A stretch of 64,000 nucleotides of DNA from IMG/VR virus record IMGVR_UViG_3300034073_002120; one strand, 5' to 3'. Origin of the DNA: a virus (Duplodnaviria; Caudoviricetes). The notes beneath the pieces were generated by a model. The model was not told the origin of the DNA. It saw nothing but the letters and a program-made list of their open reading frames with translations, and did no database searches. A program made the position numbers and the translations under genes. Shown one piece after another: positions 2,508-24,161 of the stretch (positions are counted from its first letter, which is position 1; every line of letters begins with the position of its first letter).

Positions 2508-3752
2508 TTAATTGAAAATCTCATCTCGCATTGCGTTAAAATCTACACCATTTAGGGTGGTTACATCGGTATTATGAATTTTATCCATATTATGTGTAAA
2601 TCCTACGATAGTTTCTACCGATTTTTCCATATTTGGTTCTGAATTGATAAAATTGATTAAATTAGTGATTTCATTAATGGTTTTTTCACTATCCAATTCT
2701 TTAATACCATTTTCTAAGAATTCAACAAGTCTTTTCTTTTCAGATTTACTAATATTATTTAGAGTAACATGAGATGGCACCCATGCGTAATAAAAATCTA
2801 TATGGTCTGATGAACCTATAAATTCATTTTCTTTCATAAATTTAATAAAATCAAATATATGATACACATTCCAAATTGTAGTTGTGTATTGAAAATTATA
2901 TTGCATCCCCATTCCACCTGCATATGGTGATTCTGCTCTGAAATATTTTTTTATAGTTTTTAAGTTTTCTATAAATCTTTCATGTTGAAATCCTACTCTT
3001 TGATATTCACCAACTTTATCGATTCCATCACATGAAATTGATAAAAATACTCTATCAAATCCTTTCCATAAATCAATCAAACTCTGTTCATCATATGTGA
3101 TTACTGATAAATTTGTGTTGTAGTGGATACTTAATCTTCGTTTATTTCCCCAATGCTGTTCTATAATTGGCATCGTATCATAAAGATATTTCAATACTTT
3201 ATAATGTTCTGGCATGATAAGAGGTTCACCTCCAGCGAAATAAAAACTTTTAACATTTTTAAGATGTGGAATTAAATCCTCTACAATTGTATCAGATACT
3301 TTCATCACTTTAGTTCTACCTTTTGTATAACCAGGTGCTATTTTCTCATTATCTTCAAACCAATTTGATGAAAAATCATGATTACACATTCTACATTTGA
3401 AATTACAAAGGTTAGAAAATCTAATATCAATATGCTGAAATTGGGTTTCTACTGAAAAATCTTCATTTACTTTTGGCATTTCCCACAATCGATTTGCATT
3501 AAAATCAGTACGAGGAGAAATGCCATTCAAATCTTCTTTTTTATAGCATACATCACATACTTTGTTACGTTTACCACTTAACATATCTTCACGCAATTCT
3601 TTCATTTGTGGTGAATTAAATGCATCATCGATAGACATAGTTTTCAAATCCAAAGGTGTATCAAATCCACCTGCAATACAACAAGGTTTCATTTCTCCTT
3701 TTGGTTCTGAATATAAATGTACGAATGGTAGTATGCAGATAGTATTACTCAT
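2508..3752 (-). CDS. Radical SAM protein with twitch/SPASM-like auxiliary cluster domain
   Basis: CNFKCRMC (CxxxCxxC), AGGEP motif, and N-terminal CILPF...PCC...CDVC. Confidence 0.85.
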   Translation of the reverse strand: MSNTICILPFVHLYSEPKGEMKPCCIAGGFDTPLDLKTMSIDDAFNSPQMKELREDMLSGKRNKVCDVCYKKEDLNGISPRTDFNANRLWEMPKVNEDFSVETQFQHIDIRFSNLCNFKCRMCNHDFSSNWFEDNEKIAPGYTKGRTKVMKVSDTIVEDLIPHLKNVKSFYFAGGEPLIMPEHYKVLKYLYDTMPIIEQHWGNKRRLSIHYNTNLSVITYDEQSLIDLWKGFDRVFLSISCDGIDKVGEYQRVGFQHERFIENLKTIKKYFRAESPYAGGMGMQYNFQYTTTIWNVYHIFDFIKFMKENEFIGSSDHIDFYYAWVPSHVTLNNISKSEKKRLVEFLENGIKELDSEKTINEITNLINFINSEPNMEKSVETIVGFTHNMDKIHNTDVTTLNGVDFNAMRDEIFN

Positions 3753-7284: not shown

Positions 7285-8907
<1,623 letters not shown>

Positions 8908-9005: not shown

Positions 9006-12000
9006 TTATCTACCAAAGATATAACGAATACCTAATTGTGCAGACCATACATCAAATACTGATGAATTGTACTGATAAGTATCTCTAGCTAAGATAGTAG
9101 AACCATCTGCTAATTTTTGAGTTGCTAACTTATAAACTGGTTCACCATTTGTTGTAGTTGAATAGTTTAAGATAGTTGGAATAGTTGCTCTTTGAGAAAC
9201 ACCCCACTCATTATTTAATAAATTACCAAAGTTCAAAATATCAGCTCTGATTTGAATTGTATTCTTTTTACCTTTAACATTTACATAAATATCTTGTACA
9301 ACTGATAAATCGAATCTATGTAACATCGGTAAGAATGAACCATTTCTTTCAGCATATTGACCTCTACGAGATGATAAATATTTATCTTGTCCGATGTAAG
9401 AATCAAATGCTGCTTGTTGTTCAGCTTCAGTATATGTTCTTCCACCTGCAGTTAATGGTGCGAATTTAATATCAGAACCTTTTGATGGAACGAAAATTAA
9501 ATCATTACCTGCTATTCTATCACCATTCATATCACCACCGATTGTGTAAGAGAATGGGTTACCCTGATTTCCTACATAACCTAATGTGAATGAAGTTGCA
9601 CCACCCATACCTTTACCATATTCTAATCTATATCCTAACAAACCAACTAAACGATTTGGAGATAAAAAATTTGAATTAGATAAAGATAAATCGTTATTAC
9701 CATTTACACTTCTTGCACCTGTCCAACTACCTGAAGCGATTGAACCTGCACTCATAAAGTCTTTAGCATCTGATACCGTCCAAGCAAATGAACCGAACAC
9801 ACCTTTTTGGTAAGGATATTCTAATTTCAAAGTTAATGAACTGAATGATGCATCATTTGAATTAGTTAATACAATTGCGTTTGAAACATTACTATTTACT
9901 CTAACACTTGCATCAGTTCTACCATACATCGCTCTTGTATCAACACCTGCGAATATACCAGTTGGAACACCAAAGTTTGCGTTATAATAATGAACTGCAT
10001 TTAAGTTTTTATTTGTAATAAATTCTGCAGTACCGATGAACCCAAATGGTAATTTTTGGTCAATTGCGATATTAGATTTCCAAACTTGTGGGAACTTATA
10101 GTTCTCATCTGTAAATGCCAAATCAAATGTAGATGGTAAAGTTGGAGTTGATGGAATAAAGTATTTGTTAGGGTCAGCAGTGAAACCATATTTAGCTGCT
10201 GCAGCACCACTAGCATCAATATATCCTGTCAATACACCATTATTACCTACTTGATTTGAAATGAATACATATGGAGGTCTACCAGTGAATACACCTGTAC
10301 CACCTCTTAATTGTGTTTTTCTATCACCAAATACATCGTAGTTAAATCCGAAACGAGGTTCGAAAAGTGTTTGTGTTTTTGGTAATTTACCAGTATTAAA
10401 CTTTTGTCCACCTGCAAATGTCATCGCCGTTACTGCTGGGTTTTCTAATGCAGTTTGTTCGAATGAAATTACTGCAGCTCTTAAACCCAAAGTAAACTTT
10501 AAGTTTTCAGTTGCCTGATATTCATCTTGTCCGTAAATATCTAATCTATCAGTTTTCAAAGTTTGTAATGGTTCTGCTGCTCCTGGTAATGCCGAATAAC
10601 GGAATTGGAAACGAGCGGGTGTCAACGTAGAAGGTGCTCCACCATTTGCTAATGATTGATTAGCTGCGGTGTAGAAATCTGCTAAACTATTGAAAATATA
10701 AACACCATTAGATGCTGGGAAAAATAAGTTATTAGATTGATATTTCTCATAGTTAAAACCTAATGTCAAAGTGTGTTTATCTGCATACTTTGTTAAGTTG
10801 TTTGTAATATGGAAAGTATTGTAATCTAATTTATTTCCAGGTGTGAATGGGTCAAAACCTACTGCCGTAAGAGTTGTTGCTCCTTCTTTAATATCCACAG
10901 TTGGGAATACATTAGAAAGATAAGCTCTATTTTCAATTTGTTTATCATAACCAACAATTAAGTTATTATGTAAAGTGTTTGATAATTTAGAGTTTAATTC
11001 TAACACATAAGAACGTGTATTATCCATAATACCATAACCACTATTCTTAAAACTCATTGCTAATGCTGATTGAGTTCTATTACCAAATCCTGCTGAAGAA
11101 GAGTTTGAAATGTTAATTTCTGCTTCAGAATCGTGATGAACATAACGTGCGGTTAATTTATGTTTATCGTTGATGTTCCAATCCATACGAACTAAGAATT
11201 TCTTAGATGCGTTTGTGTTAGAATACCCTTCAAATGGACCAGTTGTGTAATTAAACTTATCTTGCATAAATTTAGATAAGTCTGATAATTGTGTATAAGT
11301 TGGTCTGCTAACTTGCGAACCTGTTAATGGAGAACCTGTTGAAATCCAATTTGTTCCTGGTTCAGTTTTCTCAATTTGTTCGTAGTTTCCAAAGATGAAT
11401 AATTTATTCTTAATGATTGGAGCACCCAAACGGAAACCTTGTACCTTCTCATCAAATTTAGATGCGGTTACTTTTGTTCCTCTTGCATTATCACCAACAT
11501 ATGTAGATGAATTGTTTCTTTGTGTTTGATATACCGAACCTTCAATTTCGTTTGTACCAGAACGAGTTACTGCATTGATACCAGCACCAGTAAATCCACT
11601 CTGACGAATATCGAAAGGTGCGATGTTTACTTGTAATTGCTCAATCGCATCTAATGAAATTGCCGATGCTCCGGTTCTACCACCAGCTTGTGCAGATGAA
11701 CCTAAACCGAATCCATTATTGAATTGAGAACCATCGATTGTAAAGTTATTCAAACGAGAATCTTGTGCTCCGAATGAGTTTCCGTTTCCGTTTGGATTGT
11801 ATTTAGTAATACCATCGATTGTTCTTGCTCCCGTAATTGGAATGTTTTGTAAATCTCTACGAGTGAATTGTTGAGATGCACCAGTTCTTTCTCTTGATAT
11901 AAGATTATTTCTACCGGCACTTACTACCACTTCTTTTAATGTAGTAGTTTCATCAACTAAAACAAAATCAACGTTTGTAGTAATACCCAATTGAGTATTC

Positions 12001-12275
12001 ACATCTTTGATTTCATCTTTTTTGTATCCTACATAAGTAGTGTGTAATACATATGGACCACCTACTCTAATTGCAGGTAAAACATATGCACCATTTTTGT
12101 TGGTTACAGCATTATACTGCGTACCGGTTGGGGTATGTACTGCGTGAATCGTAGCACCTACCAACACTTCATTTTTCTCGTTTTTCACAACACCTGAAAT
12201 TGAGGAAGTAGTAATCTGACTAAATCCAAAAAATGAGGTCATTGCGAAAAGTAACGATAAAATTAGTTTTTTCAT
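9006..12275 (-). CDS. TonB-dependent outer-membrane transporter (Oar-like, N-terminal carboxypeptidase-regulatory-like domain)
   Basis: Signal peptide MKKLILSLLFAMTSFFGFSQ (start 12275), plug motif NNFTIDG...QSGFTGAGINAVTRSGTN, beta-barrel, C-terminal LGIRYIF; 1089 aa, uninterrupted. Confidence 0.9.
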   Translation of the reverse strand: MKKLILSLLFAMTSFFGFSQITTSSISGVVKNEKNEVLVGATIHAVHTPTGTQYNAVTNKNGAYVLPAIRVGGPYVLHTTYVGYKKDEIKDVNTQLGITTNVDFVLVDETTTLKEVVVSAGRNNLISRERTGASQQFTRRDLQNIPITGARTIDGITKYNPNGNGNSFGAQDSRLNNFTIDGSQFNNGFGLGSSAQAGGRTGASAISLDAIEQLQVNIAPFDIRQSGFTGAGINAVTRSGTNEIEGSVYQTQRNNSSTYVGDNARGTKVTASKFDEKVQGFRLGAPIIKNKLFIFGNYEQIEKTEPGTNWISTGSPLTGSQVSRPTYTQLSDLSKFMQDKFNYTTGPFEGYSNTNASKKFLVRMDWNINDKHKLTARYVHHDSEAEINISNSSSAGFGNRTQSALAMSFKNSGYGIMDNTRSYVLELNSKLSNTLHNNLIVGYDKQIENRAYLSNVFPTVDIKEGATTLTAVGFDPFTPGNKLDYNTFHITNNLTKYADKHTLTLGFNYEKYQSNNLFFPASNGVYIFNSLADFYTAANQSLANGGAPSTLTPARFQFRYSALPGAAEPLQTLKTDRLDIYGQDEYQATENLKFTLGLRAAVISFEQTALENPAVTAMTFAGGQKFNTGKLPKTQTLFEPRFGFNYDVFGDRKTQLRGGTGVFTGRPPYVFISNQVGNNGVLTGYIDASGAAAAKYGFTADPNKYFIPSTPTLPSTFDLAFTDENYKFPQVWKSNIAIDQKLPFGFIGTAEFITNKNLNAVHYYNANFGVPTGIFAGVDTRAMYGRTDASVRVNSNVSNAIVLTNSNDASFSSLTLKLEYPYQKGVFGSFAWTVSDAKDFMSAGSIASGSWTGARSVNGNNDLSLSNSNFLSPNRLVGLLGYRLEYGKGMGGATSFTLGYVGNQGNPFSYTIGGDMNGDRIAGNDLIFVPSKGSDIKFAPLTAGGRTYTEAEQQAAFDSYIGQDKYLSSRRGQYAERNGSFLPMLHRFDLSVVQDIYVNVKGKKNTIQIRADILNFGNLLNNEWGVSQRATIPTILNYSTTTNGEPVYKLATQKLADGSTILARDTYQYNSSVFDVWSAQLGIRYIFGR

Positions 12276-12312
12276 AATTGTCCTTTTTTTGTTGTTAAAA
12301 ATTAAATAAACT

Positions 12313-12331
12313 ATTTGAGACCGTCTCAAAT
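12313..12331. promoter_or_regulatory. Perfect interrupted palindrome upstream of the transporter (operator or hairpin)
   Basis: ATTTGAGAC-C-GTCTCAAAT, 37 nt upstream of the ATG. Confidence 0.5.
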
Positions 12332-17927: not shown

Positions 17928-18875
17928 TTATGTAAATTTTAATATAGTGTTTTGTTTGGATATTTCAAATATTTCTTTACCCTTTTCATTCATATCAATT
18001 AAGGTATAAAATCGATTCGTATTTAAACATGCTCTACCTAATGTACCACTACCTGCAAATATATCCAAACAATTTGAGTTTTCGTTTGAATATAAATTTA
18101 CAATTCTTTCTAATAATGCTACTGGTTTTTGAGTAGCATAATCAAGTTTTTCGTTCATTTGTATCGTACTAATATCATTCCAGACATCTTTTAGTGGAAT
18201 CCCACCACTTTCATGTAAATAGCGTTTTATTCTTGGTATTCCTGCAGAATTATATTCCAATCTATTAGAATTATGTAATTCTTGCATTTTTTCAACGGAA
18301 ACCCACCATTGTTTCATATGACCGTTCCATTCATATCTCAAATTAGGTCTTTGTATTACATTAGGTTGTGAATTTACGGCAGCAGATGTGGTATATTTAC
18401 CATTTGAATCTTCTTTTGCTTTTTTTACATAATCAAGATTATATGGTAATAAAATTCTATTAAAAATAGCTTTATTTTTATTTTTAGAATAAATTAATAA
18501 TACATCATGTTGTCTCATTAATTTATTTTTAACTGATTTTTGATTTGAGGTAATCCATATCAATTCATTTCTAAAATTTTTTATACCAAAAATGGAATCT
18601 AATAAAATTTTAACATAATGTGATGCGATAGAATCAATATGGACTATTATATTACCAGATTCAGATAATTTTAAATATATTTCTTGTAATCTAGGTTTTA
18701 AAAAATCTAAAAAATGTTGCATACTTTCAAATGAATCTCCGAAATCACCAAAATCTCTGCCAGTATTATATGGAGGGTCTATGTAACATAAATCATAAGT
18801 ATGTGGTATATTTTTAAGTATTTCTAAATTATCACCAATTAAATATTGATTAATATATTCTATATTATTTTTCAT
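17928..18875 (-). CDS. Beta-class DNA amino-methyltransferase (N6A/N4C)
   Basis: DPPY precedes FAGSG; YATQKP motif. The likely start is MKNNIEY at 18875, overlapping the upstream stop by 11 nt. Confidence 0.9.
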   Translation of the reverse strand: MKNNIEYINQYLIGDNLEILKNIPHTYDLCYIDPPYNTGRDFGDFGDSFESMQHFLDFLKPRLQEIYLKLSESGNIIVHIDSIASHYVKILLDSIFGIKNFRNELIWITSNQKSVKNKLMRQHDVLLIYSKNKNKAIFNRILLPYNLDYVKKAKEDSNGKYTTSAAVNSQPNVIQRPNLRYEWNGHMKQWWVSVEKMQELHNSNRLEYNSAGIPRIKRYLHESGGIPLKDVWNDISTIQMNEKLDYATQKPVALLERIVNLYSNENSNCLDIFAGSGTLGRACLNTNRFYTLIDMNEKGKEIFEISKQNTILKFT

Positions 18876-19446
18876 TTTTTTGTTTGTATTCAGTTTCCAA
18901 TACCTCAATTGCTTTACCAACATATTTTTCCCATATTTTTTTAGGGACACGTGGTAATAAATATTTTGGATTTTTAGGGTCTATCAAAGCAGATTCAGGT
19001 ATAGCAATATATTGCCATTTTTGTATATTTAAATATTCATTAATATCAGGTTTTGAAAAAACATAAACATCGGCCTCACCTGCAGAATATCTTACATGTC
19101 CAGTATCTGAACTAAATTCATTTTTTTGTGATTTTCTACGAGTTTGTTCAAGATGTAATGTATTTGCTCTTAATTTTGATTGTATTTTTAATAAATTATC
19201 AGTTGTAATTAAATCATATCCAGATGCGTTTGAATCCGAACTAAAATCGTTTCGTTTAACTACATTTAAATTTGTATTCTCATTAATCCAATCACACTGT
19301 ATATGTTCATTAGGGTCAGCAAATAATTTACCTAAATCACGTAATTCAATATTTTTTGCCAAATCCTCTTGAGATAACCATAGATAATATACACTTGGTT
19401 CATTTAATTTTAAATAGTTTAGAACTTCATTTTTAGTAGGTATCAT
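18865..19446 (-). CDS. Putative type II restriction endonuclease (PD-(D/E)XK, D...QxK)
   Basis: SGYDLIT...KIQSKLR resembles the D-x(n)-QxK catalytic variant; translationally coupled to the MTase. Confidence 0.55.
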   Translation of the reverse strand: MIPTKNEVLNYLKLNEPSVYYLWLSQEDLAKNIELRDLGKLFADPNEHIQCDWINENTNLNVVKRNDFSSDSNASGYDLITTDNLLKIQSKLRANTLHLEQTRRKSQKNEFSSDTGHVRYSAGEADVYVFSKPDINEYLNIQKWQYIAIPESALIDPKNPKYLLPRVPKKIWEKYVGKAIEVLETEYKQKNEK

Positions 19447-19881: not shown

Positions 19882-20721
19882 TTAAAATTTGTAAATTCCA
19901 CCCACATTCCAGAATAAAATAGTACCCTCAATTTGGTCTATATTTTCTTCTAACCATTTCCATTGTTTTATATCCCAAAATTGGTTACAAGGGAATGGGG
20001 CTGAATATCCTTCTATTCTATCCTCAAAAAGATACTCCGATTTTCGTATGTTTATGGGAATTGGAATACCACTTTTTTTAAGGGTCTTTTTGATTGAACT
20101 TTCAGATGATACACAAGTTGTCCAAACCTTCTTTTTAACATCAGGAAAAAACTCTTTAAGTTCTTCTCTATAATATCCTCTCACAAGACCGGATAGGGTT
20201 ACTCCACTACCAGATGATACTACTAAATTATCAAAATGTGCAAATGGTTGAATTCTTTCTGCAAGATAATCTTTGTAAAAATCGTGGTCAAACGCATAAG
20301 GTAGCATTTGCCAACCATTTTCTCTTGCTTGACCTCTAAGTGAATTATACATAATCTGCATCATATTAGGTCTGATTGGATTTAGATGTGTTTTTGGATA
20401 CATCTCTTTAATCAAACCCAAATACTCTTGCGATATTTTTTTAGAATCTGGATGTGATACATAAAATTCAATATCTAATTCTTCACATATTGCTGCAAGT
20501 GCCCATCCAGTCCAACTGCCATCTACCGAAAGGTGGGTTAGTGGTTTTGAAGGGTCTACATATTTTTTAACCAATTCATATAATGCTGCTATCTTACCCC
20601 ACGGCGGTAATGTTATACCATCACCCATCAAATCATCTCTTTTTACCCAAACCTCTCTTCCTTTAATGTGATAAAGTTCTAAGGGAGTATCTTCATTTAA
20701 TCCTTTTAATCTTACATCCAT
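19882..20721 (-). CDS. PLP-dependent fold-type II enzyme (ACC deaminase / D-cysteine desulfhydrase-like)
   Basis: VWVKRDDL...PPWGK (Schiff-base Lys position), SSGSGVTLSG phosphate loop, C-terminal ILFWNVGG. Confidence 0.75.
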   Translation of the reverse strand: MDVRLKGLNEDTPLELYHIKGREVWVKRDDLMGDGITLPPWGKIAALYELVKKYVDPSKPLTHLSVDGSWTGWALAAICEELDIEFYVSHPDSKKISQEYLGLIKEMYPKTHLNPIRPNMMQIMYNSLRGQARENGWQMLPYAFDHDFYKDYLAERIQPFAHFDNLVVSSGSGVTLSGLVRGYYREELKEFFPDVKKKVWTTCVSSESSIKKTLKKSGIPIPINIRKSEYLFEDRIEGYSAPFPCNQFWDIKQWKWLEENIDQIEGTILFWNVGGIYKF

Positions 20722-22217
20722 TTTTGAAATCCTCCTCCATTTGATACTAATTCTCCTTTCATATTTCGGTGGGAGAACCCGTGAATTTTTTCGAAATTAT
20801 CACCGATTACATTTATCATCTTTTTTCTTTTTTTGAAATTGATGTTAGGGTCATTTAAAATAATTTCTTCAATATATTGTTTAAAATTTGTTCCTTTTTG
20901 GAATGCTCGTTTCTCTTGGTCTAATATCTCATCTGGTAACTTACCTCTAAATCCATCTGCAAGTGGTAATTTCCATTGTCCACCTTTACACAAATACTCA
21001 TCGGTAAGATTCGTAGTATAATTTAGAAAATCAGTATCAAAGAATGGACATCTTAATTCGATTGTTCCATAATTCATAAAGATTGTATTGCCTCTTAGTA
21101 AGTTTCCGTAATATTGTTTTTCAAATAATTTCTTACGAACATCACTCCAATCAGGTTTCTTACTAAACATACGGAAAGTTCCATATGAACCATAACTTTC
21201 ATCACTACCCTCACCACTAAATGCTACTTTGATTCCATCCAACGCCATTTGTTCTGCGATAAATGATTGTAGAATACCAACCTCCATTTGAACGGTCGAT
21301 GGATATTCGATTACTCTAATCGAATCTAAGAAACGTTGTTTGATGATTTCATCATTTTTGGGAACAAATACTTCAACCAATTCTACTCCCAAATACTTTG
21401 CACACACTCTTGCTTTTTGTAAATCTTTTGATGTTTCATCAAATGCAATTGTGTATGCTTTTAAGTTAGGGATTCGTTGGGATAGAAGATAAGTAATTAC
21501 AGCAGAATCAATACCACCACTAAGTGATGTTGCAATTGGTACATCGGATAATAATCTCTTATCTACTGCTCTTTCTAATAATTTGAATGTAGTTTCTGCT
21601 ACCTCTTCATGTGATGTAACCTTTGTTGGTTCTGATGAAAATTGAAAATAAAAGTTTTCGTTTATTGTAATCTTATCAGTATCCAAATCAATTTCAACCA
21701 AACTATTTTTAGGTACAAATTTAATTTCGGATGTTTTATGTTGTGTAGTGATTGATTTTAATTCACTTGCAACTATATAATTGTTTGAATTGTAAATATA
21801 AAGTGGTAATTTACCTACCCAATCTCTCGATAATAATAATTTGTTATTATCATAAATAATGAATGAAAACATACCATCTAACCTCTTCAATTCACCCTCT
21901 TTATATAAGAAAAGAATGATTTCAGAATCCGAATTTGATTTAAAGGTATAACCTCTTTCTTCGTATTCTTTACGCAATTGAGGATAATTCCATATCTCAC
22001 CATTTACTACTAATTGAATACCATCAAATTCCATCGGTTGATTACCTAATGGTGATGTATCGTTGATTGATAAACGATTGTGACCTAATATGATATGTTT
22101 ATCACCATATTGGAATTCTCTAATTCCTCTATTATCTCTTCCGCGATGTTCTATCGCTTCCAACATTTCATTTACTTCATCTCTTTTATATCCTATGGTT
22201 GCTACGATTCCACACAT
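20712..22217 (-). CDS. asnB: AsnB-family glutamine-dependent amidotransferase
   Basis: N-terminal MCGI Ntn nucleophile, HRGRD, HNRLSI, NGEIWNY, PP-loop SLSGGIDS, SGEGSDE, ELRCPFFD. Confidence 0.9.
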   Translation of the reverse strand: MCGIVATIGYKRDEVNEMLEAIEHRGRDNRGIREFQYGDKHIILGHNRLSINDTSPLGNQPMEFDGIQLVVNGEIWNYPQLRKEYEERGYTFKSNSDSEIILFLYKEGELKRLDGMFSFIIYDNNKLLLSRDWVGKLPLYIYNSNNYIVASELKSITTQHKTSEIKFVPKNSLVEIDLDTDKITINENFYFQFSSEPTKVTSHEEVAETTFKLLERAVDKRLLSDVPIATSLSGGIDSAVITYLLSQRIPNLKAYTIAFDETSKDLQKARVCAKYLGVELVEVFVPKNDEIIKQRFLDSIRVIEYPSTVQMEVGILQSFIAEQMALDGIKVAFSGEGSDESYGSYGTFRMFSKKPDWSDVRKKLFEKQYYGNLLRGNTIFMNYGTIELRCPFFDTDFLNYTTNLTDEYLCKGGQWKLPLADGFRGKLPDEILDQEKRAFQKGTNFKQYIEEIILNDPNINFKKRKKMINVIGDNFEKIHGFSHRNMKGELVSNGGGFQKWM

Positions 22218-22218
22218 A

Positions 22219-22917
22219 TTATCTATTTAATACTTCTAATAACTTATGAGTTTTTTTAGTTTCATCATTCATTTTACCGATATGACAAGAACAAGCTAAA
22301 ACTGATACTTTTTCTAATTCCATATCACTTTCTTTTGCTAAGAACTTACCCATCTCTACTAATGCAGTATAATCTGCATAACCTGATTTAGATACTCTAT
22401 TTGAACGAATGATTGATGTTAGGTAGATTTTACCATTACGAGGTTTAATATCGATTGCTAACATACAAGGTTGTGAATACGGATTTCGTGCATCTCTACT
22501 CGGGTCAAAGATAATCAATTCACATCTTTTAACTGCTTTACCAGTCTTTAAGATTTTGATTACATTCTCTACCTGATTGAAAGTTCCTTGCCACGAAACC
22601 ATTCTACCCCAATATGAATCGTGCCATTTATCTTTGATGAATTTATATTCTAACCCTTCCTCTGCTTGAAAGAATGGAGAATCCGAAACAAATGGTTGTG
22701 GTTCTAAGAATGTTACGGTCTTTGCGTAATCAATTCTATCATCACCCATAATCTCTCTAAAATGAGGGTCAAACCAATCATCAGATTCAAACTTTGTGAT
22801 TTCGGTCATCACATTTAATTCTTCGGTTAAATCACCTACTTTTACTCCGTTTTGGATAAGATGTTTAGATACTTTTACCCATGCATCGCCAGGAGATGTT
22901 GCTTCTATTACTGTCAT
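22219..22917 (-). CDS. Divergent thymidylate-synthase / dCMP-hydroxymethylase-fold protein
   Basis: SYWGR, NQVENVIKIL, QPC catalytic Cys, RSN...ADY with Asp at the dUMP/dCMP discriminator, CHI. Confidence 0.8.
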   Translation of the reverse strand: MTVIEATSPGDAWVKVSKHLIQNGVKVGDLTEELNVMTEITKFESDDWFDPHFREIMGDDRIDYAKTVTFLEPQPFVSDSPFFQAEEGLEYKFIKDKWHDSYWGRMVSWQGTFNQVENVIKILKTGKAVKRCELIIFDPSRDARNPYSQPCMLAIDIKPRNGKIYLTSIIRSNRVSKSGYADYTALVEMGKFLAKESDMELEKVSVLACSCHIGKMNDETKKTHKLLEVLNR

Positions 22918-22928
22918 ATTATTTAATT

Positions 22929-24161
22929 TTATAATTTACGAAAAATCCATATCGGTTCACAAAACGTTTTATCTTTTGCTTCTTCGTTCTTTTTCAGTTC
23001 TTCTTCGGAATATCTTTCTTCATCACCCTCTATAATCATTCCTGCCCCTGCAGAACCCGGTCTTTTCGCCATTTCCATACCCAAACATCCCTCGTAATGT
23101 GCACCTTCTAGAGTGGAAATAAAATCGTTCATAGGATTAGTGATTTCTTGTTGACCTTTACCATCACCTTTTGAGGATGCATATACATCTGCAATGTTCA
23201 CTGCTAAGTAACCACCTTTCTTAATAGTTGGCCATACATTAGCAATAGTTTTATGTAAGAAATTTTTATTCCAATCATCAATTGTTTTATATCGTATCCA
23301 ACTTTGAGTATCATCATATGAATACCTTTCTACGTTGAAATATGGTGGCGAACTGAATACAATATCAAAGTATTCGTTATACTCACTCAAATCCAAATCT
23401 TCTGCTGGTGATTCATAAAATGTTGATTTCTTTTCAGTTTCAAAGAATCCATTATTCTTTTCATAGAAATCCGCTTGTTGTCTATAAATTGGATGATTTT
23501 CTTTACGAGGGTCAATACCTACATAATGTTCTCCGTATTCTGATGCATAAAATCCACATAATCTATCACCCCATCCAGCTGAAATATCTAATACATTCTT
23601 TGCTTGAACGAAATCATATAATGCCTTTGCAACGTTTGGTTTAAATTGGGAACAAATGTATTTTCGCAAAGATAAACAAGTTCGTAATGTAGTATTACTA
23701 ACTTCATCGAATTTTAGAGTGTACATACCACCCATAAGTGAGAACATAAAATCAGGATTATTCCAAGTTCTATACGGCCCAGGTGAAACTGTGCCATCTA
23801 CACTCCATCGATTTGCTTGTTGAAAATAATTTGAGGCAGGATTACCAGTGTTTAATCTTCTAACGAATTGTTGTTTACCTTGAAACTCAAATGGATATCG
23901 AGATTCAGATGCCTTTCGTGGCACCCATGCTCCTTCGGTAAATAATTCATGCCAACGAATACCTTTTAGTTTAAGATATTCATTTCTTGCTTCTTCTTCG
24001 GAAATTGGAGCATATGGGATTTCGTATGTTGCTGCAACTTTTGCAAGAGATTCTTTTACATCTTCTCTATCGAAAGTTTTCTTAATATACTCCCATTCCT
24101 CATTACCGATAAAGAGATACGGAGTCATTCCGTAAAACTTATCAAAGTATTCTAAATACAT
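22929..24161 (-). CDS. SAM-dependent amino-methyltransferase-like protein (motif I then SPPY)
   Basis: LDISAGWGDR, HYVGIDP, FSSPPYF, NIAD. Confidence 0.8.
   Translation of the reverse strand: MYLEYFDKFYGMTPYLFIGNEEWEYIKKTFDREDVKESLAKVAATYEIPYAPISEEEARNEYLKLKGIRWHELFTEGAWVPRKASESRYPFEFQGKQQFVRRLNTGNPASNYFQQANRWSVDGTVSPGPYRTWNNPDFMFSLMGGMYTLKFDEVSNTTLRTCLSLRKYICSQFKPNVAKALYDFVQAKNVLDISAGWGDRLCGFYASEYGEHYVGIDPRKENHPIYRQQADFYEKNNGFFETEKKSTFYESPAEDLDLSEYNEYFDIVFSSPPYFNVERYSYDDTQSWIRYKTIDDWNKNFLHKTIANVWPTIKKGGYLAVNIADVYASSKGDGKGQQEITNPMNDFISTLEGAHYEGCLGMEMAKRPGSAGAGMIIEGDEERYSEEELKKNEEAKDKTFCEPIWIFRKL

Follow-up and report, generated by a model that had tools for sequence, protein, structure and literature searches.

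Gene neighbourhood of the TS-fold protein

The 64,000-nt window, that is, the whole stretch of DNA from an uncultured large phage analysed here, carries on its minus strand a gene for a short thymidylate synthase (TS)-fold protein, hereafter TSL. It is packed between an upstream gene for an SPPY-motif DNA-methylase-like protein and downstream genes for an AsnB-like amide ligase and a PLP enzyme (Table 1). The SPPY gene lies 11 nt upstream of TSL, the AsnB-like gene starts 1 nt past the TSL stop codon, and the PLP and AsnB-like genes overlap by 10 nt. The same order, with either an AsnB-like or a stand-alone PP-loop amide ligase after TSL, recurs in the 79 TSL loci of IMG/VR, which lie on contigs of up to 375 kb. 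The tightly packed TSL-ligase-PLP core is conserved over these loci down to 40-50% TSL identity. TSL genes are common in environmental data, which contain 228 clusters at 90% identity. A megablast search with 15 kb of the window returned no match among cultured phages, and viral-contig scans with the outgroup proteins P0147 and P0150 returned no loci. A full-text literature search found no paper on the TSL gene combination, nor on Arg or Ala at the position equivalent to residue 169 of E. coli ThyA.

Table 1. Genes and residue-level features of the TSL locus (window coordinates)
Feature	Position	Strand	Basis
TSL: short TS-fold enzyme, cytosine-type, without the folate Asp, 232 aa	22219..22917	-	Profile matches and AF2 model
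Cys151, equivalent to catalytic Cys146 of ThyA	22465..22467	-	Profile alignment; invariant in 190/190 sequences
Arg174, at the ThyA Asp169 position	22396..22398	-	Profile alignment; clade: R in 173, A in 11 unique sequences
Asp182, at the ThyA Asn177 position; cytosine-type specificity residue	22372..22374	-	Profile alignment; clade-invariant
Gly214, at the ThyA Tyr209 position	22276..22278	-	Profile alignment; Arg there exactly where 169 is Ala
Clade-specific motif, residues 49-73, F-D-x-x-F-R-x-x-x-G-x-x-R-I-D-x-A ... F-x-x-P	22699..22773	-	Alignment and model
AsnB-like glutamine-dependent amide ligase, 501 aa	20712..22217	-	Pfam Asn_synthase and GATase_7; TIGR01536
Fold-type II PLP enzyme, M6 gp52 family, 279 aa	19882..20721	-	Homology to M6 gp52
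SPPY-motif SAM-dependent DNA amino-methyltransferase-like protein, 410 aa	22929..24161	-	phrog_12517; Atlas viral N6_N4_Mtase clusters
Second SPPY methylase-like paralogue, 545 aa	12646..14283	-	phrog_12517

The AsnB-like gene is syntenic in most of the 79 loci. Its product is 31% identical to E. coli AsnB and scores 289.5 bits against TIGR01536, above the cut-off of 267.1; since it passes this NCBI asparagine-synthase cut-off, it might be an ordinary metabolic gene. AsnB-type ligases amidate carboxylated cytosine in phage DNA (PMC12783734). The PLP enzyme aligns with M6 gp52 over its full length (26% identity over 278 aa, pairwise E 5e-26). Its K43 is aligned to the Schiff-base lysine K36 of gp52, and both proteins have the C-terminal motif P-F-P-C-N ... 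W-K-W-L ... F-W-N-x-G. The M6 protein works at the DNA level, where it decarboxylates an amino acid bound to a base; this activity is known only for M6 gp52 and ViI gp226 (PMC8989533). The AF2 model of the SPPY protein (pLDDT 90) finds Trm11-type MTases as its best folds, with generic class-I amino-methyltransferase matches only. SPPY paralogues flank the core in other loci, and a homologue of the 545-aa paralogue lies directly upstream of TSL in a sister phage group (L055-L071). In some TSL relatives a radical SAM enzyme is present in addition or as a fusion: P0124 joins it to TSL, L050 joins it to an SPPY methylase, and these fusions link the parts functionally. No kinase or amino-acid:DNA transferase able to tether an amino acid was found in the core module.

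Genome-wide checks were made in a 99%-identical phage of 287 kb, the IMG/VR record behind locus L002. This phage encodes a canonical ThyA away from TSL (R-S-V-D, N177, H-L-Y; 308 bits), so TSL is not needed for dTMP. Given this ThyA and the Asp of TSL at ThyA position 177, we rejected TSL as the dTMP synthase of the phage. The dNMP kinase, dCTPase (MazG) and dCMP deaminase families were not found in this related complete genome, so that any pre-replicative route would have to rely on enzymes of the host.

Active-site residues and the cofactor pocket

Against Pfam PF00303, TSL reaches 20.5 bits and so stays under the gathering score (24.3). Against the methanogen-type TS model TIGR03283 it scores 67.5 bits (E 1e-18; curated cut-off 174.55), with a match that spans residues 96-214 only. 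The AF2 model (pLDDT 95) has AfhB as its closest solved structure (PDB 9iqu; Foldseek rank 1; VIA Z 19.8, rmsd 2.6 over 193 residues); the VIA Z scores are 19.5 for MilA and 17.8 for L. casei TS. Profile comparison, too, ranks AfhB first among solved proteins (E 5e-25, full length), and MilA is the sole PDB sequence match of the single TSL protein (E 0.016). A clade-only profile matches the methanogen-type TS of PhiF1 over the full length and collinearly (hhalign E 4e-14), and RB69 gp48 over 101 columns (E 8e-9). In the tree, the TSL clade is monophyletic (SH-aLRT 97).

Residue equivalences were taken from a profile-profile comparison in which an alignment of 67 family sequences was matched to E. 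coli ThyA (probability 97.9%, E 3e-13), with T4 gp42 as a second reference. TSL residues Y102, K130, R131, S148 and C151 correspond to ThyA Y94, R126, R127, L143 and C146, respectively; R171, S172, N173 and R174 to R166, S167, C168 and D169; and D182, H212 and G214 to N177, H207 and Y209. The catalytic Cys and the phosphate-binding R166/S167 of ThyA are thus present as the invariant C151, R171 and S172, and the equivalents of the catalytic Cys, Y94, R166 and S167 are retained in the clade. Asn177 of ThyA, which gives uracil specificity, and Asp169, which contacts and activates folate, are replaced by D182 and R174, and Asp at 177 is described as a cytosine-type specificity residue (PMC13326640). 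Within the 5'-phosphate site K130, R171 and S172 are clade-invariant; R127, another arginine of this site in ThyA, is missing in about half of the clade. The residue equivalent to L143 is small or polar (S, G or K).

These alignments agree with the preliminary description, which had read the Asp after R-S-x as Arg in TSL and as conserved in T4 gp42, and the H-x-Y motif as H-I-G. It had also noted that the protein ends early, and indeed only 18 residues follow G214, the chain stopping about 38 residues early. The structural alignment reaches TSL residue 231-232 but only residue 276 of 316 in L. casei TS, and it ends at residue 225 of about 260 in M. tuberculosis ThyA; the C-terminal segment that closes over folate in ThyA has no counterpart in TSL. 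Its further statement that two near-invariant residues had been lost stands for D169, kept in 64 of the 71 relatives outside the clade that have the R-S motif. It does not stand for Y209, kept in 48 of the 71 and replaced by Arg in 8. The loss of Y209 is the weaker evidence: this residue is only 68% conserved among the short TS relatives and is absent from the dCMP hydroxylase AfhB too.

Asp is found at position 169 (ThyA numbering) in none of the 184 unique clade sequences. As for conservation of the substituting residues, which the preliminary description had raised, Arg itself is kept at 169 in part: 173 sequences combine R169 with a non-Arg residue at 209, and the remaining 11 combine A169 with R209, with no exception. 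Each clade sequence thus supplies exactly one Arg to the site, from either position 169 or position 209. The tree outgroups keep D169, and R209 is already present in three of the six. The loss of D169 is thus beyond chance and a trait of the clade. This clade-wide pattern led us to reject a one-off mutation or sequencing error as the source of the Arg. A tracking of A169 or R169 with the type of ligase was likewise rejected: L044 combines R169 with a stand-alone ligase, and in L053 and L058 an AsnB-type ligase occurs together with A169.

The pocket wall is also altered. The motif at residues 49-73 is invariant within the clade and missing from the D169-keeping outgroups, and the model places it as helices H50-57 and H60-69 where ThyA has its folate-pocket helix. 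The clade-specific invariant residues of this helical wall are F49, D50, F53, R54, G58, R61, I62 and D63. In addition, the hydrophobic V-F-L-G-L-P-F stretch (170-176) reads S-K-S-G-Y in the clade. D169 is present in all folate-dependent members compared (ThyA, T4 gp42, MilA, PhiF1 methanogen-type TS and the phage's own ThyA), and the only natural change characterised at this position, D169N, signals that the cofactor has become a flavin (PMC13326640). For these reasons, together with the rebuilt pocket wall, the earlier suggestion that TSL may depart from the normal use of methylene-THF is supported, as a reading of sequence and model.

Proposed chemistry and its alternatives

TS-fold enzymes have long been held to do folate-dependent one-carbon chemistry only. 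In 2025-26 the branch with D169N turned out to be a flavin hydroxylase, which made residue 169 a reporter of the cofactor. The TSL clade presents a third state of this position: it is Arg, or it is Ala and the Arg has shifted to 209. Combined with the rebuilt pocket, this makes TSL a direct candidate for another switch of cofactor or cosubstrate. Moreover, TSL always travels with enzymes whose relatives decorate DNA bases, and hence its product is probably an undescribed modified cytosine. We consider it very probable that TSL is a C5-modifying enzyme of cytosine nucleotides that no longer uses folate, and with the same high confidence that it initiates an undescribed cytosine hypermodification rather than making dTMP. 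A base of this kind would bear on the evasion of restriction and CRISPR, on the sequencing of these phages and on the toolbox of DNA-modifying enzymes.

For the chemistry itself, our preference is tentative: a carbon electrophile with a carboxylate, bound through the Arg, may be added at C5. TSL would serve the phage as a specialised TS-fold enzyme beside ThyA, acting on a cytosine mononucleotide, most likely dCMP, selected by Asp182. As the catalytic Cys does throughout the TS fold, Cys151 would attack C6 of the base and so turn C5 into a carbon nucleophile. The folate pocket would have been rebuilt into a polar, cationic one, with the obligatory Arg at 169 or 209 and the clade-invariant R54, R61 and K177. 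In place of methylene-THF it would hold a small anionic carbon electrophile bearing a carboxylate; candidates are an imine or aldehyde that derives from an amino acid, and SAM as donor of its aminocarboxypropyl group. An amino-acid-like side chain would be gained at C5 in one step, and phosphorylation, incorporation into DNA and trimming of the side chain would follow. Of the neighbours, the ligase (AsnB-like or PP-loop) would convert a carboxylate to its amide, and the gp52-type PLP enzyme would decarboxylate the alpha-amino acid. Methyl groups may be added by the SPPY methylase-like enzymes and, in some phages, by the radical SAM enzyme. Since the core lacks a kinase or amino-acid:DNA transferase, TSL would be the simplest source of the amino-acid-like group. 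Ligase and decarboxylase would compete for a single alpha-carboxylate, and so the side chain would have to carry two carboxylates, unless the PLP enzyme does something else.

Stated in full, namely that TSL gave up both folate and flavin and that its Cys-activated C5 carbanion forms a C-C bond with an amino-acid-type carboxylate-bearing electrophile on a relocatable Arg, the proposal is put forward more tentatively still. If true, C-C bond formation free of folate and flavin would add a new class of reaction to the thymidylate synthase superfamily. An amino-acid-bearing cytosine nucleotide would be made in one step, and TSL would stand at the start of a new family of cytosine hypermodifications among abundant jumbo phages of aquatic habitats. 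It is plausible, as the preliminary description had suggested, that the donor comes from the neighbouring enzymes; the closest studied relatives of these neighbours, the gp52-type decarboxylase and AsnB/CmoY-type amide ligases (PMC12783734), act after base modification.

The main rival, which we regard as unlikely, is a flavin-dependent dCMP 5-hydroxylase like HY126 AfhB and RB69 gp48. TSL would then make 5-hydroxy-dCMP, and the 5-OH would be alkylated in DNA by SPPY enzymes with a methyl or aminocarboxypropyl group, the appended group being amidated or decarboxylated afterwards. The cationic pocket could equally bind the phosphate of FMN or FAD, and its Arg and other basic residues could hold the flavin phosphate or activate O2. 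AfhB, the closest solved protein by profile and by structure, is a flavin enzyme with the same short C-terminus, Asp at 177, Asn for D169 and Phe for Y209, and substitution of D169 is the published marker of the folate-to-flavin switch (PMC13326640). However, the published diagnostic residue is Asn, whereas the clade has Arg or Ala and never Asn among its 184 sequences. The folate enzyme MilA scores equal to AfhB within error, and the clade-only profile is nearer to the PhiF1 enzyme than to RB69 gp48, so that any flavin use would be convergent. In this scheme the SPPY enzymes would also have to act as aminocarboxypropyl transferases, for which there is no support. Continued use of a pterin seems improbable to us. 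TSL would be a dCMP hydroxymethylase or methylase in which another residue has taken over the role of D169, and an amino acid would later capture the 5-hydroxymethyl-C or the exocyclic-methylene intermediate. The nearest sequence relatives are methanogen-type TS, the nearest cultured-phage homologues adjoin glucosyltransferases, as hydroxymethylases do, and the S, G or K at the L143 position would admit water or another nucleophile. Nevertheless, every characterised folate-dependent member compared keeps D169, and by the title of PDB entry 1bjg a TS D169N mutant fails to promote imidazolidine ring opening of the cofactor. The hydrophobic folate contacts 170-176 and the pocket helix are replaced in the clade, and no kinase or transferase in the core module could activate a hydroxymethyl group.

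The preliminary description had further raised a 3'-substituted or polymeric substrate, that is, cytosine in a 3'-phosphorylated nucleotide or in DNA, with the relocated Arg binding a 3'-phosphate at the Tyr209/His207 site for the 3'-OH. Arg can indeed occupy position 209, a contact of the 3'-OH, and R127 and the C-terminal lid are missing, the former in about half of the clade. Radical SAM enzymes occur fused to TSL in one case and to a DNA-methylase domain in another, and no phage family for dNMP kinase or dCTPase was found in the related complete genome. These observations are outweighed, in our judgement, by AfhB, which has the same truncation and loss of Tyr209 yet binds free dCMP, with which it was crystallised, and by the invariant K130, R171 and S172 of the 5'-phosphate site. 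In TS structures the 3'-OH faces the protein core, an orientation that would bar a DNA chain without a large rearrangement, and we know of no TS-fold enzyme that acts on a polymer. A substrate of this kind is therefore very improbable, and we retain addition of a carboxylate-bearing electrophile to a free cytosine nucleotide as the preferred reading.

Relation to known systems

The closest systems are the flavin-dependent 5-hydroxy-dCMP synthases AfhB of HY126 (PDB 9iqu/9iqc), RB69 gp48 and DLP3 gp80. Like AfhB, TSL has the short form of the TS fold, some 220-240 aa in length, in which the chain stops directly behind the H-x-[Y/F] strand; the catalytic Cys and Asp at 177 are present, and both D169 and Y209 are replaced. 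It thus shares the short fold with Cys146 and Asp177 of the 5-hydroxy-dCMP synthases, but has Arg in place of their diagnostic Asn at 169. AfhB-type enzymes supply the start of a cytosine hypermodification, as we propose for TSL. Unlike them, TSL has the obligatory Arg at 169 or 209, different N-terminal pocket helices and a sequence nearer to methanogen-type TS; its neighbours are an amide ligase and a decarboxylase, whereas those of the AfhB type are glycosyltransferases and sugar-nucleotide enzymes. The methanogen-type TS (TIGR03283; Methanobacterium virus PhiF1 ORF59) shares the short architecture and the equivalents of Y94, R97, C146, R166 and S167, but keeps D169, the uracil-type N177 and Y209. 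T4 gp42 (dCMP hydroxymethylase) and MilA (CMP hydroxymethylase) have the TS fold, the catalytic Cys and Asp at 177, and take the first step of a cytosine modification, the role proposed for TSL. They differ in keeping D169 (R-S-N-D and R-A-N-D) and the folate site, in an acidic residue at 143 where TSL has Ser148, and in a longer C-terminus.

At the level of the cassette, the comparison is with the thymidine hypermodification pathway of Pseudomonas phage M6 (gp51 transferase, gp52 PLP decarboxylase, gp53 radical SAM and gp54 kinase) and with CmoA/CmoX/CmoY of Synechococcus phage S-B43. The common logic would be a C5-functionalised pyrimidine that is 'sculpted' on DNA. CmoY clusters contain AsnB-type ligases with or without a glutaminase domain (PMC12783734), and the TSL cassette has an AsnB-like ligase. 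In contrast to M6 and S-B43, the TSL module has neither 5-hydroxymethyl kinase, amino-acid:DNA transferase and CmoA nor a CmoX of the C5-methyltransferase type. Judged from the Asp at 177, its base would be cytosine, unlike that of M6, and its initiator, unlike that of either phage, would be a rewired TS-fold protein.

Fold and active site

At the sequence level, the thymidylate synthase (TS)-like protein, TSL, only weakly resembles TS. It scored 20.5 bits against Pfam PF00303, below the gathering score of 24.3, and matched PHROG 'thymidylate synthase' families at E 1e-8 and the methanogen-type TS family TIGR03283 at E 1e-18, far under its cut-off. A PDB search with the protein sequence alone matched nothing but MilA (E 0.016). 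As proposed in the preliminary description, the structure was predicted and superposed on solved ones. The AlphaFold2 model, built with 67 homologues as input (mean pLDDT 95), puts the TS fold beyond doubt. The nearest solved structure is AfhB, the dCMP hydroxylase of phage HY126 (9iqu; Z 19.8, rmsd 2.6 Å, 193 residues); MilA and L. casei TS gave Z 19.5 and 17.8, respectively.

Residue equivalences were derived from profile-profile alignment of the TSL family with E. coli ThyA and T4 gp42. Residues Y102, K130/R131, S148, and C151 correspond to ThyA Y94, R126/R127, L143, and C146, R171-S172-N173-R174 to R166-S167-C168-D169, and H212-I213-G214 to H207-L208-Y209. The earlier readings of Arg for the Asp after RSx and of H-I-G for the H-x-Y motif are thereby confirmed, as is the early end of the protein, the alignment of the model to L. 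casei TS stopping at residue 276 of 316. Left unstressed in that description was D182, the equivalent of N177. T4 gp42, MilA, and the 5-hydroxy-dCMP synthases likewise have Asp at 177, which marks the cytosine type (PMC13326640). Within its TS fold, TSL keeps the nucleophilic Cys, the equivalent of Tyr94, and a cytosine-type Asp.

Conservation and pocket of the TSL clade

When 1.8 billion cluster representatives were searched exhaustively with HMMER, no more than 14 clusters reached E ≤ 1e-30 and 190 reached E ≤ 1e-3; an indexed search yielded 228 clusters at 90% identity. All matches were aligned to one profile, from which the active-site columns were read. Asp was found at position 169 (ThyA numbering) in 0/184 unique sequences of the clade; 173 combine R169 with a residue other than Arg (mostly Gly) at 209, and 11 have A169, each with R209 (11/11). 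The equivalents of C146 and D177 are invariant. The preliminary description had regarded both lost residues as near-invariant. Asp169 is kept in 64 of the 71 relatives outside the clade that have the R-S motif. Tyr209 is not near-invariant in this branch: only 48 of them keep it and 8 replace it by Arg. Loss of Y209 by itself says little, being frequent among short relatives of TS; in AfhB, the position is Phe.

In a maximum-likelihood tree, the clade is placed on a single branch against D169-keeping outgroups (SH-aLRT 97). R209 is present in three of the six outgroups, and A169/R209 forms make up three well-supported groups at the clade base, which itself is not resolved. The simplest history leads from D169/R209 through A169/R209 to R169 paired with a small 209 residue; loss of Asp169 therefore defines the clade, with exactly one Arg always kept at this spot. 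In TS structures, the D169 backbone contacts the base O2 and Y209 contacts the 3'-OH, making the two positions neighbours. In the model, R174 and G214 are located just beyond the C-terminal ends of strands 163-170 and 200-213.

The pocket has been rebuilt, becoming more polar and basic, and the folate Asp is lost. Residues F49, D50, F53, R54, G58, R61, I62, D63, A65, F70, and P73 are invariant within the clade only, not in the outgroups; in the model, this region forms two helices (residues 50-57 and 60-69) in place of the folate-pocket helix of ThyA. P159 and S176 are further clade-specific invariants, and K177 (TSL numbering) is invariant in the clade and mixed in the six outgroups (G, K, R, N, R, R). 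ThyA residues 170-176, which are hydrophobic and line the folate site, are replaced by S-K-S-G-Y. The mononucleotide phosphate site is retained; the first of the partner-subunit phosphate arginines is always Lys, and the second, an Arg in the window, is replaced by Thr or Met in roughly half the clade.

The gene cassette and its neighbours

The window belongs to a large tailed phage and has every gene on the minus strand; its products include a tail sheath protein, a GroEL-like chaperonin, a DNA polymerase, a helicase, ribonucleotide reductase, and a UvsX-like recombinase. Four genes run head to tail, encoding the methylase-like SPPY protein, TSL, an AsnB-like protein, and a PLP enzyme. In 79 IMG/VR loci, where TSL relatives are as distant as 40% identity, the arrangement TSL, ligase, PLP enzyme is near-universal, and an SPPY paralogue adjoins this core or lies a few kb off, with up to four copies.

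Coordinates of the cassette genes and other features
Feature	Record	Position	Strand	Remarks
Twitch-domain radical SAM protein	window	2508-3752	-	NF033640, 322 bits, above cut-off; 20 kb from cassette
GroEL-like chaperonin	window	7285-8904	-	amid replication region
1107-aa ORF	window	9006-12329	-	amid replication region; no PHROG or NCBIfam match
DPPY beta-class N6/N4 DNA methylase (340 aa) and overlapping 193-aa ORF	window	17928-19446	-	between cassette and DNA polymerase gene; 193-aa ORF without family match
Fold-type II PLP enzyme	window	19882-20721	-	10-nt overlap with ligase gene
AsnB-like glutamine amidotransferase/ligase	window	20712-22217	-	1 nt after TSL
TSL	window	22219..22917	-	232 aa
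SPPY-motif methylase-like gene	window	22929-24161	-	11 nt before TSL
Radical SAM domain fused to SPPY N6_N4 DNA-methylase domain	L050	4486-6891		directly after TSL gene
Conserved ORF after PLP gene	L055	12022-12858		257-278 aa with syntenic ORFs of L056-L071; no Pfam match
TSL-domain ORF	L058	8233-9687		484 aa; GIY-YIG/NUMOD3 homing-endonuclease-like N-terminal part in frame
Four SPPY paralogues (383-430 aa) and Dam-like D12 methylase	L072/L073	5625-13828		flank core; 275-kb phage contig
Canonical ThyA	L082	1486-2592		368 aa; ~60-100-residue insertion between Cys strand and R-S-V-D strand

The PLP enzyme aligned over its full length with gp52 of Pseudomonas phage M6 (278 residues at 26% identity; pairwise E 5e-26). 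K43 of the enzyme corresponds to the proposed Schiff-base K36 of gp52, and the two have a C-terminal motif in common. Pure M6 gp52 decarboxylates an amino acid that derives from glycine and is attached to a thymine of DNA (PMC8989533). The AsnB-like protein has 31% identity with AsnB of E. coli, keeps the S-G-E-G-S-D-E loop, and passes the TIGR01536 cut-off, so an ordinary asparagine synthetase is possible. In about 15 loci, its slot is occupied by a ~300-aa PP-loop ligase lacking the glutaminase domain, and such a swap of ligase type favours a function in the pathway. The carboxymethylcytosine system has AsnB-type ligases with and without this domain, and its amide ligase CmoY amidates a carboxylate on DNA cytosine (PMC12783734). 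The SPPY protein belongs to virus-only N6_N4 DNA-methylase-like clusters and has a class-I amino-methyltransferase fold (best match Trm11). The conserved operon brings together enzymes with relatives that trim bases bearing carboxylates and amino acids.

A ~450-aa radical SAM enzyme adjoins the TSL gene in four loci (L048, L051, L052, L061), with best matches to B12-binding-type families, all far under cut-offs. In the 676-aa metagenome protein P0124, a radical SAM domain carrying a CxxxCxxC motif is fused to a TSL domain of the A169/R209 type. The twitch-domain protein of the window is of a type unlike those adjoining TSL in other phages.

The four SPPY paralogues of L072/L073 may differ in sequence specificity or act in successive methylations, and the N-terminal part in L058 may represent a homing endonuclease that has inserted directly upstream. 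The conserved ORF of L055-L071, a sister phage group with a 545-aa SPPY type upstream of TSL, may be a further cassette member. The DPPY methylase and 193-aa ORF were not found in the 79 loci except for one weak methylase match (42% identity, L047, off the cassette), which suggests a local insertion of the two.

Proposed reaction and comparison with known systems

A 287,455-bp IMG/VR record (CheckV 100% complete) carries a TSL copy (locus L002) 99% identical to that of the window and, elsewhere (L082), a canonical ThyA (308 bits over the whole profile; P-C-H, R-S-V-D, N177, H-L-Y), so that TSL is most likely not the dTMP synthase of the phage. ThyX was not found in this record, nor were dCMP deaminase, MazG-type pyrophosphatase, or thymidylate kinase at Pfam level.

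We infer that TSL activates C5 of dCMP and adds a group that is not a folate-borne one-carbon unit. Our tentative candidate for the cosubstrate is a carboxylate-bearing carbon electrophile, which C5 would attack in the Mannich- or aldol-type manner of TS on the folate iminium. An anionic ligand would fit the obligatory, relocatable Arg and the additional basic residues. A carboxylate is required by the ligase and a free alpha-amino acid by a gp52-type enzyme, and the core has no kinase or amino-acid:DNA transferase to install an amino acid. Weak points are that the amide ligase and the decarboxylase would contest a single alpha-carboxylate, and that a flavin phosphate would suit the basic pocket too. 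The latter, with AfhB as nearest solved structure, speaks for the main rival, a convergent flavin hydroxylase like AfhB. We consider this doubtful: the clade-only profile is nearer to PhiF1 methanogen-type TS (E 4e-14, full length) than to RB69 gp48 (E 8e-9, 101 columns), and the published diagnostic Asn at 169 never occurs in the clade. A residual pterin-dependent hydroxymethylase is less likely and would be rather surprising, and a DNA-level or 3'-phosphate substrate, also among the less likely readings, seems very improbable.

Full-text literature searches found no description of the cassette headed by TSL. The nearest cultured-phage homologues, from Lactobacillus phage ATCCB and Enterococcus phage nattely (23-26% identity), keep D169 and Y209 and are adjoined by glucosyltransferases. 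TSL departs from ThyA at N177 and D169 and in its C-terminal segment, scores under the Pfam threshold, and stays below the curated cut-off of TIGR03283. It shares Asp at 177 with gp42, MilA, and the 5-hydroxy-dCMP synthases, but lacks the D169 and the acidic residue at 143 of gp42/MilA and the D169N marker of the 5-hydroxy-dCMP synthases; AfhB has Phe at 209 where TSL has Gly. TSL is best classed as a new active-site variant in the TS superfamily of pyrimidine C5-modifying enzymes.
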